A stretch of 64,000 nucleotides of DNA from Alphaproteobacteria bacterium. GTDB lineage: Bacteria; Pseudomonadota; Alphaproteobacteria; CAAHEQ01; UBA3637. A program made the position numbers and the translations under genes. Shown one piece after another: positions 51,226 to 52,797 of this stretch; the first letter of the stretch is position 1; each line of letters begins with the position of its first letter. The stretch lies in contig JAZTVX010000021.1 in NCBI GenBank assembly GCA_045635565.1, positions 15,078 through 79,077 on the forward strand, given 5' to 3'. The notes beneath the pieces were generated by a model. That model had not been told where the DNA came from. It saw only the letters and a program-made list of their open reading frames with translations, and did not search any database.

Positions 51226-51448
51226 GACAAATTAAAGAAATGAGAGACAGTTAAGGTATAGAGAATATTATAGTTGATAAGATTGTTATGAAACAGATAA
51301 AAGAACACCTAAAGAATAATTAAAAAATTAGAATGAGTAAAATGATATTTGAAAAACACATTAAAACACAATAATCCTTGTAAGATACCCCAAAATGTGC
51401 TATTGCTATGGATTGAGTATATTTGAATGAAATGAAAGGAAAATTATC

Positions 51449-51706
51449 ATGACAAATATTGAAGATATTAAGTCTATTGATTTTAGAAAAGTAGCAGATA
51501 GAGTTGTCATACCAAGAGATATATTTGATATGCCCAGAGAAAAAGGTAAATCAGATAACACACCATGCCTGACACTTGAAGCATTTGAACCTTATATAGA
51601 TGAAGATTTTAATGAGGATGATGGAAGTATAATTAAAGCAACAAAGATTACATCCCAATCGCTCTCTATAAAAAAAGACACATCTCGTGGTGCAAGGGGT
51701 GAATAA
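51449..51706 (+). CDS. Small tail-family protein (85 aa). First of three tandem cassettes.
   Basis: C-terminus KITSQSLSIKKDTSRGARGE. Confidence 0.45.
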   Translation: MTNIEDIKSIDFRKVADRVVIPRDIFDMPREKGKSDNTPCLTLEAFEPYIDEDFNEDDGSIIKATKITSQSLSIKKDTSRGARGE

Positions 51707-51780
51707 AAACAGAAATTCTGCTTTTGTAGAGTTTTTTATAATATTTGACAAAGAGTTTGAAATGTGCTATAGATTGAGTA
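51707..51780 (+). repeat. Junction repeat, copy 1. It carries a promoter-like element TTGACA-17-TATAGA.
   Basis: aaacagaaattctgcttttgtagagttttttataatatttgacaaagagtttgaaatgtgctatagattgagta is near-identical to 52225-52300. Confidence 0.6.
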
Positions 51781-52224
51781 TTGTTTGCTAAGAGTAGGAG
51801 TATTGTTATGAAACCAGAAGAAAAACATCTTTCATTTTCGATTGAGAGATTTGAAGATGTTGGCAAAGCATTTGAAGATGTTGGTGGCCCTAAAAGCGGT
51901 ATTAAATTAACAGGTGAAGACCATGCTATTTGGGTTAACTATTCAAATGCTTCAAAAGAAACAATGCAACAATTTAAACAAGCCCTTTTAAAACATACTA
52001 TTAAAAACACTCTTAAAACAAAGGGAGTGACTATTTTGCAAGTTTGTTGTCTTTTGACAGTGTTGGGTGCTTTGCTCAAAGGGTTCCATACCGGATTAGA
52101 TTATCTTACTTCTCCATGCAAAACAAAAATACAAAACGAAAATAGTTTACCACAAGTTCAAAAAATCACAGACCAAAAGAAAATGCCTATGCAAGACACT
52201 TTTCAAAGGGCAAGAGAGGAATAA
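51781..52224 (+). CDS. Tail-family protein (147 aa) with a TM helix before the conserved tail
   Basis: TM VTILQVCCLLTVLGALLKGF. Tail LPQVQKITDQKKMPMQDTFQRAREE. Confidence 0.45.
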   Translation: MFAKSRSIVMKPEEKHLSFSIERFEDVGKAFEDVGGPKSGIKLTGEDHAIWVNYSNASKETMQQFKQALLKHTIKNTLKTKGVTILQVCCLLTVLGALLKGFHTGLDYLTSPCKTKIQNENSLPQVQKITDQKKMPMQDTFQRAREE

Positions 52225-52327
52225 AAACAGAAATTCTGCTTTTGTGGAGTTTTTTATAATATTGACAAATAGCTTGAAATGTGCTACGGATTGAATGTAT
52301 TTTAATGAAATAGAAAGGTATAATTAG
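52225..52327 (+). repeat. Junction repeat, copy 2 (promoter-like TTGACA-17-TACGGA)
   Basis: aaacagaaattctgcttttgtggagttttttataatattgacaaatagcttgaaatgtgctacggattgaatgta. Confidence 0.6.
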
Positions 52328-52780
52328 ATGACTGCTACGAAAATGCCATTTGTAGAGAATAATGTGATGGTAAGTTTTAACACTAAAGGTACAAATCGTA
52401 GAACTTTTAGTGTAAGCCATGATGATAGAGTAGGTTTTTATAAAACATGCGCACAAACAAATGCTGCGATAGTAGGGGTGCAATCTCCATCTTCATTCGG
52501 TGATTCTCATTATACTATTCAATTTCGTAATGAAAAAGAAGAGAAAAAATTTTCAAAATTGTTGCAAAGAAATACAGAGGGTTATCTTTATTCGTTCTTA
52601 ACCAATAAATATGGACTTTGTTTTGTATCAGGATTAGCATGGTTCACCGTGGGTTTTTTAATGAGCACAACCAGAAAGTCAAAGGATAATGATGCTCGCC
52701 CAGTTCCTCAAATCCAAAAAATAACAGATCAAAAGAAAATGTTACCACAAGATACCTCTCGTGGTGCAAGAGAAAATTAA
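52328..52780 (+). CDS. Tail-family protein (150 aa) with a TM helix before the conserved tail
   Basis: TM YGLCFVSGLAWFTVGFLM. Tail PVPQIQKITDQKKMLPQDTSRGAREN. Confidence 0.45.
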   Translation: MTATKMPFVENNVMVSFNTKGTNRRTFSVSHDDRVGFYKTCAQTNAAIVGVQSPSSFGDSHYTIQFRNEKEEKKFSKLLQRNTEGYLYSFLTNKYGLCFVSGLAWFTVGFLMSTTRKSKDNDARPVPQIQKITDQKKMLPQDTSRGAREN

Positions 52781-52797
52781 AGAAGGAATTCATTGAA

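Follow-up and report, generated by a model that had tools for sequence, protein, structure and literature searches.

A tandem array of tail-family genes with repeated terminator- and promoter-like junctions, probably remodelled by recombination within short shared boxes

Genes of the array

We describe here a small tandem gene array located in a stretch of 64,000 nucleotides (hereafter the window) of an alphaproteobacterial metagenomic contig (Alphaproteobacteria bacterium, GenBank assembly GCA_045635565.1, contig JAZTVX010000021.1, positions 15,078 to 79,077). Three neighbouring genes, called g1, g2 and g3, end in related C-terminal tails and are separated by two closely similar junctions. 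An earlier note on this DNA had proposed a repeated layout, in which a variable 5' coding part is followed by a constant tail, junction and promoter. This layout holds, and we consider it probable that the array is modular and has been remodelled by recombination within boxes which its members share. According to the list of open reading frames (ORFs) of the window, the three genes lie in tandem on the same strand:

51449-51706, plus strand: g1, 85 amino acids (aa), tail family, with an acidic EPYIDEDF box, no transmembrane (TM) segment and a degenerate tail ending in ATKITSQSLSIKKDTSRGARGE and stop
51808-52224, plus strand: g2, 138 aa, tail family, with one TM segment at about residues 73-93 and a degenerate tail end, QVQKITDQKKMPMQDTFQRAREE and stop
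52328-52780, plus strand: g3, 150 aa, with a small beta-alpha-beta-beta domain, a long helix containing a TM segment, and a canonical tail ending in QIQKITDQKKMLPQDTSRGAREN and stop

Related contigs and sequences of metagenome-assembled genomes (MAGs) are denoted Lxxx and homologous proteins Pxxxx; L001 is GCA_017481685.1. Orthologues of g1 are present in L001 and L006 with 90-92% identity. The start of g2 is the ATG at 51808, with AGGAG 8 nt upstream; its orthologues P0008 (which has an intact tail) and P0016 begin MKPEEK or MRREEK, and TTG 51781 is only the mechanical start of the ORF. Because g2 starts at 51808, the first intergenic segment (IG1) comprises 51707-51807 (101 nt). The note had drawn this segment as 51707-51780; the repeat that it saw there is real, while the segment extends further. 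Two features of g2 should be mentioned. Its tail end (52199-52224) is degenerate in the window species, where it reads DTFQRAREE (DTFQRAKDE in L021, DTSRGAREN in orthologues elsewhere), and relaxed selection on this copy may be the reason. The gene also contains a perfect 15-nt repeat, ATTTGAAGATGTTGG, at 51849-51863 and 51870-51884, which encodes FEDVG twice. As for g3, its N-terminal domain found only generic structural neighbours.

Terminator-like and promoter-like modules form the junctions

The elements around and between the three genes are as follows:

51675-51697, plus strand: tail-coding homology box, copy 1 (AAGACACATCTCGTGGTGCAAGG), left crossover of a 1.07-kb block described below
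52193-52215, plus strand: tail-coding homology box, copy 2, diverged
52749-52771, plus strand: tail-coding homology box, copy 3, right crossover of that block
51707-51744, plus strand: terminator-like module 1, hairpin 51711-51736 with 11 bp including two G-U pairs, loop UUUU and U6, then AT-rich TATAATAT
52225-52261, plus strand: terminator-like module 2, hairpin 52229-52254 and U6
51745-51781, plus strand: promoter-like module 1, TTGACA 51745-51750, a 17-nt spacer ending TGc, TATAGA 51768-51773, then TTGAGTAT
52262-52298, plus strand: promoter-like module 2, TTGACA 52262-52267, a 17-nt spacer, TACGGA 52285-52290, then TTGAATGT
51378-51421, plus strand: g1 promoter-like region, with its own -35-like TTGTAA (51378-51383) and the shared -10/+1 box TGCTATGGATTGAGTAT (51404-51420)

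Unit 1 (51675-51782) and unit 2 (52193-52301) align over 110 nt with 84.5% identity (E=7e-29, calculated within the 64-kb window), and a repeat search of the window returns the same families (D1, D3 and D4). The near-identity of the intergenic segments reported previously is borne out, and the sequences quoted for it lie where they had been placed. Each junction is made of the last tail codons, a terminator-like hairpin with a U-run and a promoter-like box, and the identity is distributed very unevenly among these parts. It reaches 95% (36/38) between the terminator modules 51707-51744 and 52225-52261 and 84% (31/37) between the promoter boxes 51745-51781 and 52262-52298, falls to 59-72% in the tail-coding stretch, and is 53% in the remaining 5' untranslated region (UTR) and 52% in the gene bodies, which is the background for AT-rich DNA. 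The resemblance could have been low-complexity AT-rich noise; tested by alignment, it proved to be sharply modular, and it is therefore not such noise. The idea that all three genes are followed by tail and junction is correct for g1 and g2 and fails for g3, after which a pseudogene of a 130-aa family is found instead.

Both junction hairpins are stem-loops with a U-run placed after a stop codon, as is expected of an intrinsic terminator. Their folding energies are -10.3 kcal/mol (z=-3.55) for the first and -9.0 kcal/mol (z=-2.68) for the second, and a consensus terminator scan missed them because it needs at least three G-C pairs. Relatives carry perfect homologous hairpins, CTCTGCaaaaGCAGAG plus T7 (CTCTGC-AAAA-GCAGAG-T7, about -14 to -15 kcal/mol), which in L013 and L014 follow a tail stop codon and in L006 the 130-aa gene, and the junction hairpin is therefore best described as a terminator-like element. 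To judge from its G-U pairs and its flipped loop (AAAA or TTTT, depending on the genome), the window version is a somewhat decayed one.

The arrangement TTGACA-17-TATAGA/TACGGA that the note had pointed out is present in both junctions, with a perfect -35 hexamer and a TG two bases before each second hexamer (a TGn extension); relatives have TATGGA or TATAAA as the -10 hexamer. A simple sigma-70 scan did not call these boxes because the second hexamers end in A and not in T. The alphaproteobacterial consensus promoter, CTTGAC-N17-CTATAT, fits them better. A CtrA-box-like reading was rejected, as the spacing does not fit TTAA-N7-TTAA. From 52250 onward, module 2 has its orthologue in the promoter that L008 carries before g3 (92.9%). 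We infer from these features that the hairpin would terminate transcription and that the box would start it again, so that g1, g2 and g3 would be separate transcription units in the window genome. Each junction would then combine tail codons, a terminator-like hairpin, a sigma-70-type promoter laid out as UP-like TATAATAT, TTGACA, 17 nt and TGn-TATrGA, and a conserved initial transcribed box.

A promoter-like element had been claimed for every gene of the array. This is so for g2 and g3, whereas the upstream region of g1 shares only the -10/+1 box with the two junctions, and the shorter copy noticed there (51395-51421) is indeed present. L001 and L006 have the g1 promoter region with 94% identity but lack a 6-nt duplication (TGCTAT TGCTAT, 51398-51409) that the window shares with L021; this duplication extends the g1 spacer from 17 to 23 nt, and it may weaken g1 transcription. 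When up to 3 mismatches are allowed, the window contains three copies of the 17-mer TGCTATGGATTGAGTAT, where 0.33 would be expected, and all of them are placed upstream of the genes g1, g2 and g3. The promoter box could be aligned in 12 upstream regions from 6 genomes (g1, g2, g3 and the ankyrin gene Ank251 of the window; g1h, g3h and Ank251 of L001; L005, L006, L008, L012 and L013), and in other genomes, too, it stands before genes that open tail operons. Conservation of the box thus covers 12 tail-gene units, paralogous or orthologous, across species.

Such conservation might have another source, namely a regulon, which the note had given as its alternative: the box from -35 to +10 would be kept by selection for one regulator or sigma factor and recombination would be incidental, which is compatible with the recombination account. 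On one hand, in 12 units from several species both the spacer, AAATGTGC, and, downstream, GGATTGAGTAT show more conservation than a core promoter needs, and the box is confined in the window to the three array genes. On the other hand, a regulon leaves unexplained both the 95% identity of the terminator modules and the breakpoints, described below, at which flanks are shared; moreover, no such box is present at a 287-aa tail gene or in the downstream half of the Ank251 promoter, and no regulator gene was identified near the array. Common regulation is thus a real possibility, albeit one in which we place somewhat less than even trust.

Terminator-promoter junctions are not the only way in which tail genes are connected. 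In L006 and L008, consecutive tail genes are usually linked by a 14-nt spacer with a Shine-Dalgarno (SD) sequence and no internal promoter; the junctions are thus one of two linking modes. In L021, which belongs to the same species as the window, IG1 carries the three IG2-type variants (C, CG) that separate IG1 from IG2 in the window, and this hints at gene conversion between junctions.

One more piece of junction lies some 7 kb away from the array, near an ankyrin tail gene, as the note had also observed:

44162-44187, plus strand: orphan terminator-promoter junction fragment (ttttataatatttgacaaatggttt), facing the 3' end of a convergent gene, 96% identical to the L013/L014 junction and 92% to IG1

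With copies or fragments at IG1, IG2, 44162-44187, L013 and L014, and with a hairpin loop flipped between genomes, the junction of about 75 nt might be taken for a small mobile repeat, similar to a miniature inverted-repeat transposable element (MITE) or a repetitive extragenic palindrome (REP), inserted after tail genes. We consider this very improbable. Neither terminal inverted repeats nor target-site duplications were seen, the element always stands exactly at a tail stop codon, and its promoter half is homologous to promoters of first genes, which are not at junctions. In addition, an exact 24-nt junction search of the Joint Genome Institute (JGI) metagenomes, a collection without the relevant ruminant assemblies of ENA/Logan, returned one unrelated chance match (L019).

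A gene family defined by its C-terminal tail

The tail comprises about 25 residues, (P)Q[VI]QKITDQK-x2-P-x-QDTSRGAR-x-E. A hidden Markov model (HMM) of the tail only, run against 1.84 billion representative proteins, gave 17 matches, 15 of which are real clusters, all with the motif at the extreme C-terminus. It sits on at least eight unrelated bodies: g1, g2, g3, the 167/172-aa proteins, the 287-aa protein, the ankyrin proteins of 251 and 272 aa, a 262-aa protein and an 86-aa TM protein. Six tail genes are found within 13 kb of the window, the three outside the array being:

39453-40316, plus strand: 287-aa tail gene with a TM segment, tail variant ending in QMQKIMEQKPVVQPTNSRGAKTM and stop, and its own, different promoter; homologues P0017, P0018, P0020 and P0021
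41893-43239, minus strand: Ank448, gene with ankyrin repeats whose tail is a short variant, KDEGRGARSE and stop
43263-44018, minus strand: Ank251, tail-family gene with ankyrin repeats, an acidic box and a canonical tail

Two sub-architectures can be distinguished. In the first, a single TM segment stands 15-25 residues before the tail (g2, g3, 167/172, 287 and P0023); in the second, the tail is preceded by an acidic box, EPY(I/L)DEDIQGDD, EPYIDEDIQGDD (g1, Ank251/272 and 262). When codons in the conserved blocks of the tail are compared over all pairs, 587 differences are synonymous and 312 non-synonymous. By this codon count the tail peptide is under purifying selection, so its conservation is not merely that of recent gene conversion. 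On the grounds of sequence comparison, g1, g2 and g3 are members of a lineage-restricted family which is defined by the C-terminal tail and not by the gene bodies.

Comparison of the g1, g2, g3, 287-aa, 130-aa, 167-aa and 262-aa proteins with Pfam, PHROG and NCBIfam revealed no family besides ankyrin repeats. An exact protein look-up of the 138-aa g2 product and of P0009 found no record, and the tail motif strings had no match in the searchable literature. The source records of the tail-family lineage are all ruminant-gut metagenomes or MAGs (for example water buffalo cecum and roe deer colon). In L003 (10585-12191), the orthologue of Ank448 (455 aa) has no tail, and an additional gene of 74 aa, whose product ends in YSRSE, stands between it and the 130-aa gene; loss or separation of the tail is therefore possible.

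The 130-aa gene at the end of the arrays

Two copies of the 130-aa gene, one of them decayed, are present in the window:

41483-41875, minus strand: intact copy of the 130-aa gene, which is conserved as the last gene in operons of tail genes
52807-53200, plus strand: psi130, decayed copy, disrupted by an in-frame TAA and by two frameshifts, one near codon 5 and one C-terminal; the same copy is decayed in L001

The protein has 27 relatives, 68-97% identical, unannotated and of the same lineage. Arrays nearly always end in this gene: it closes them in L003, L005, L006, L010, L012, L013 and L017, while in L015 and L016 one further tail gene, Ank272, comes after it, and in L001 it ends the Ank operon, with the decayed copy standing after g1h. 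The psi130 region is 90% identical to the region of an intact 133-aa gene in L008-L011. The AlphaFold2 model of the 130-aa protein is all-helical, with a pLDDT of 51, too poor for a fold search. The protein is basic and ends in KKRK-x-SRQRG. It shares three invariant cysteines with its homologues, and its end resembles a classical nuclear localisation signal, although it is too short to judge. No relatives of the protein were found among viral contigs and plasmids, so a phage or plasmid origin was rejected.

Breakpoints in related contigs fall within the shared boxes

The comparison included about 10 related contigs. As the note had anticipated for cassette number, their arrays differ in gene content and order, and gain, loss, swap and chimera formation were all encountered. 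All mapped breakpoints are located within the tail-coding box, the promoter box or the acidic EPYIDEDIQ box.

The clearest case is that of L001. The window is collinear with it (about 94%) up to 51696, in the g1 tail, and again from 52749, in the g3 tail; the right collinear part, 52749-53699, is 93.6% identical to the sequence which follows the g1 tail in L001 and covers psi130, tRNA-Ser and a transglycosylase gene. The 1.07-kb block between these points (IG1, g2, IG2 and the g3 body) is missing at that position of L001, and in the window it is flanked by direct copies of ACATCTCGTGGTGCAAG at 51675-97 and 52749-71. L001 does have a g3 homologue, upstream of Ank251 and co-directional with it, whereas in the window the g3 homologue is gone from that place. 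What is found there is the following:

44077-44116, minus strand: Ank251 hybrid promoter, with an upstream half resembling the promoter flank of the L001 g3 homologue and a downstream half equal to the Ank251 5' UTR

Two alignments meet at this promoter, 43990-44110 with L001 10671-10551 (95%) and 44078-44158 with L001 9960-9880 (80%), and the overlap of the two halves, 44078-44110, lies inside the promoter box.

Replacement between kept flanks is seen when L012 is compared with L006. The left flank is 90% identical up to the promoter box and the right flank 98.7% identical from the tail into the 130-aa gene, while between them L012 has g2, and L006 has g1 and the 167-aa gene. In L008-L011 the order is g3, 172-aa gene and 130-like gene, against g3 and psi130 in the window, and the alignments overlap in the tail at 52706-52782. 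A natural chimera was also found: P0015 (L020 390-719) begins with the N-terminus of g1 (93% to L001 g1h) and continues as the C-terminal module known from the 262-aa family (95% identity with L003). The join lies in the sequence coding for EPYIDEDIQ, and the gene occupies the usual place of Ank251, upstream of the Ank448 orthologue.

The last three tail residues follow the downstream context and not the gene body. Wherever the tail ends in REN, one and the same 130/psi130 leader comes next, on bodies as different as g1 (L001), g2 (L012, L013), g3 (window) and 167/172 (L006, L008), and g1 ends in RGE where another tail gene comes next (window, L006, L021). Decay products are frequent: besides psi130 and the degenerate g2 tail, there are a tail stub, MMPDTSRGARTE and stop, before the junction in L013 and L014, and copies of g2 damaged by a deletion inside the gene (P0013) or by a frameshift (L014).

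These observations bear on the simplest alternative, which is that the array arose by plain tandem duplication and divergence, with junctions kept alike by selection on terminator and promoter and with no recombination between loci. It is true that g2, g3 and the 167/172-aa proteins align into one architecture (small N-domain, helix, TM segment, tail) and that the C-terminal halves of g2 and g3 match (E=3e-8). Nevertheless, the body of g1 is unrelated to those of g2 and g3, the protein match being confined to the tail, and the whole-length homology expected of neighbouring tandem paralogues is not seen, given 52% nucleotide identity between gene bodies. Each gene has orthologues in other arrays and at positions elsewhere, flanks are kept while the gene between them is exchanged, the tail ending goes with the locus and not with the gene, and the terminator modules are far more alike than the coding tails adjacent to them. 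Duplication without exchange is therefore an improbable history of this array.

A quite different alternative would be a dedicated cassette system, integron-like or of the pilE/pilS kind, which shuffles genes at the junction with high frequency. Repeated junctions with a hairpin, array content varying between genomes, and an integrase fragment beyond tRNA-Ser in L021 could all be taken as signs of it. However, Pfam scans of all large ORFs around the array revealed no adjoining integrase or recombinase, and there are no silent copies, because every gene has its own promoter, SD sequence and ATG. The hairpin and its U-run resemble a terminator, and 130-aa operons also end in a homologue of it. 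Finally, three contigs of the same species from other samples are 97-99% identical to the window (L021 over the whole array, L022 and L023 over the g2 3' end, IG2 and g3), a stability which rests on consensus assemblies that would miss minority variants. Such a system thus seems to us hardly credible. The suggestion that the junction is a dedicated recombination site has to be dropped in favour of a terminator-like hairpin fused to a promoter-like box. Recombinational shuffling, as put forward in the note, survives as an evolutionary process with breakpoints in shared boxes; it does not survive as a programmed or high-frequency mechanism, as neither a recombinase nor attC-like sites are seen and same-species arrays are alike.

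Recombination within shared boxes as the probable origin of the array

The lack of an adjoining recombinase and of silent copies, together with the same-species stability, therefore argues for ordinary homologous recombination over evolutionary time. We propose that the array would have been assembled by such recombination between short boxes common to members of the family, with three kinds of box serving as anchors: that of the tail-coding sequence, that of the promoter and an acidic one, EPYIDEDIQGDD, which some members have. The same recombination may keep remodelling the loci between species by insertion, deletion, replacement and chimera formation. As stated above, we hold this combined structural and evolutionary account to be probable.

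Several points weigh against it. The tail of g2 is degenerate in the window species, the window hairpins are weak and contain two G-U pairs, and the -10 hexamers end in A and were not called by a simple promoter scan. The direction of the rearrangements (gain or loss) is not polarised by phylogeny. The sequences used for comparison are all metagenomic contigs or MAGs, in which repeats might have given rise to assembly chimeras, although the arrangement of the window is the same in four independent assemblies. Two properties concerning the tail itself, its charge and the lack of a system able to read it, belong here too and are given with its possible function below.

Comparison with known systems

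The closest functional analogue seems to be the erp (ospE/ospF/elp) family on the cp32 elements of Borrelia burgdorferi, in which a shared promoter and a short coding segment flank unrelated bodies, mosaics have arisen by recombination, and the genes are stable in the short term (PMC10016077). Both systems join a constant segment to many unrelated bodies and bear marks of past recombination, which in erp was frequent. In erp, however, the constant part is at the 5' end (promoter, lipoprotein leader and sorting residues), whereas in the window the constant coding part is the 3' tail and the promoter is a second homology box; the window array also differs in having no prophage or plasmid carrier and in having a conserved 130-aa terminal gene.

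Among alphaproteobacteria, the closest analogue for a conserved C-terminal signal is provided by the Bep arrays of Bartonella, substrates of the type IV secretion system (T4SS) VirB/VirD4, with variable N-terminal parts, a conserved C-terminal signal and a short charged tail, and with a history of duplication and reshuffling (PMC6509941). Beps require a BID domain of about 100 aa plus the tail and are encoded beside virB/virD4, while the tail proteins of the window have no BID domain and no T4SS genes were found in the 64 kb. The Bep tail is a loose charge pattern; that of the window family is a near-invariant 25-mer.

Orphan toxin/immunity cassettes of contact-dependent inhibition (CDI) and Rhs systems are also tandem modules in which a short conserved coding sequence is the homology region for module swapping. 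In them the conserved sequence precedes a variable C-terminal toxin, and the orphans have immunity genes and lack promoters and start codons. The window array has the opposite polarity, and neither promoterless orphans nor immunity genes were seen in it. Integron arrays resemble it in their tandem small genes, repeated hairpin junctions and variable content, but the window has no intI, has a promoter for each gene, and its 11-bp stem with U6 is not an attC-like imperfect palindrome with R and L boxes. The truncated donors of pilE/pilS are likewise lacking: g1, g2 and g3 are complete ORFs with their own promoter-like boxes.

What the tail may do

Conservation of the tail is at the level of the peptide and spans unrelated cargo, including eukaryote-like ankyrin repeats and membrane proteins of the tail-anchored type; its most economical reading would thus be a C-terminal recognition signal. 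Tentatively, and with considerable doubt, we suggest an export or targeting signal; it could be T4SS-like and recognised in the cytoplasm, or it could be a tag read by the 130-aa partner. Most T4SS substrates have non-cleaved C-terminal signals that consist of a few residues, charged or hydrophobic (PMC6509941). The tail QKITDQKKLPTQDTSRGARxE has 5 K/R against 3-4 D/E, which makes its net charge weakly positive. No secretion system able to read it, T4SS included, was found in the 64-kb window, where only MacAB-TolC and a truncated TpsA/TpsB pair were identified, and neither BID nor any other Pfam domain was detected in the tail region. The weak charge and the lack of a BID-like domain and of T4SS genes in the window argue against simple membership among T4SS substrates. 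A more elaborate and rather unlikely possibility is that the tail is an undescribed export or sorting signal, with the always-linked 130-aa protein as its dedicated adaptor or co-substrate, and that the boxes double as homology anchors through which an uncultured gut bacterium, perhaps associated with a protist or a host cell, plugs in new N-terminal domains such as ankyrin repeats or tail-anchored membrane proteins.

Surroundings of the array

The following features lie on either side of the array:

45784-50052, minus strand: TpsA-like ORF, 1422 aa, N-terminal part missing (no signal or TPS domain)
50014-51225, plus strand: ShlB/TpsB ORF, N-terminal part missing (no POTRA)
53424-53513, minus strand: tRNA-Ser(tga)

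The TpsA-like and ShlB ORFs are divergent and overlap by 39 nt, and ShlB has its full length of 588 aa in L021. The TpsA/TpsB block and a pilin-like gene (44291-45580) are absent at the syntenic locus of L001. An Rfam scan of 51000-53700 found tRNA-Ser only. A 55-nt direct repeat (76%; 53219-53273 and 53388-53442, spaced by 169 nt) contains a hairpin and the 3' end of this tRNA gene and has the look of an att-like scar. Within tRNA-Ser (about 53440) the sequence of L021 departs from that of the window, and a Phage_integrase fragment is found there. Further away, a 924-aa ankyrin-repeat protein (61173-63947, minus strand) has internal repeats of 312-351 nt and no tail motif. A GcrA gene is present in the window, which fits Alphaproteobacteria.

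Significance

The results define an unannotated protein family, marked by a short, near-invariant tail and accompanied by a 130-aa partner, in a poorly known lineage of gut Alphaproteobacteria. They also provide a clean natural example of how short boxes shared at both ends of genes, the promoter at one and the tail at the other, would serve as anchors for recombination, by which a gene repertoire is remodelled. If the tail is a secretion or targeting signal, its 25-residue pattern would identify the whole set of substrates, and the tail could be tested as a portable tag.

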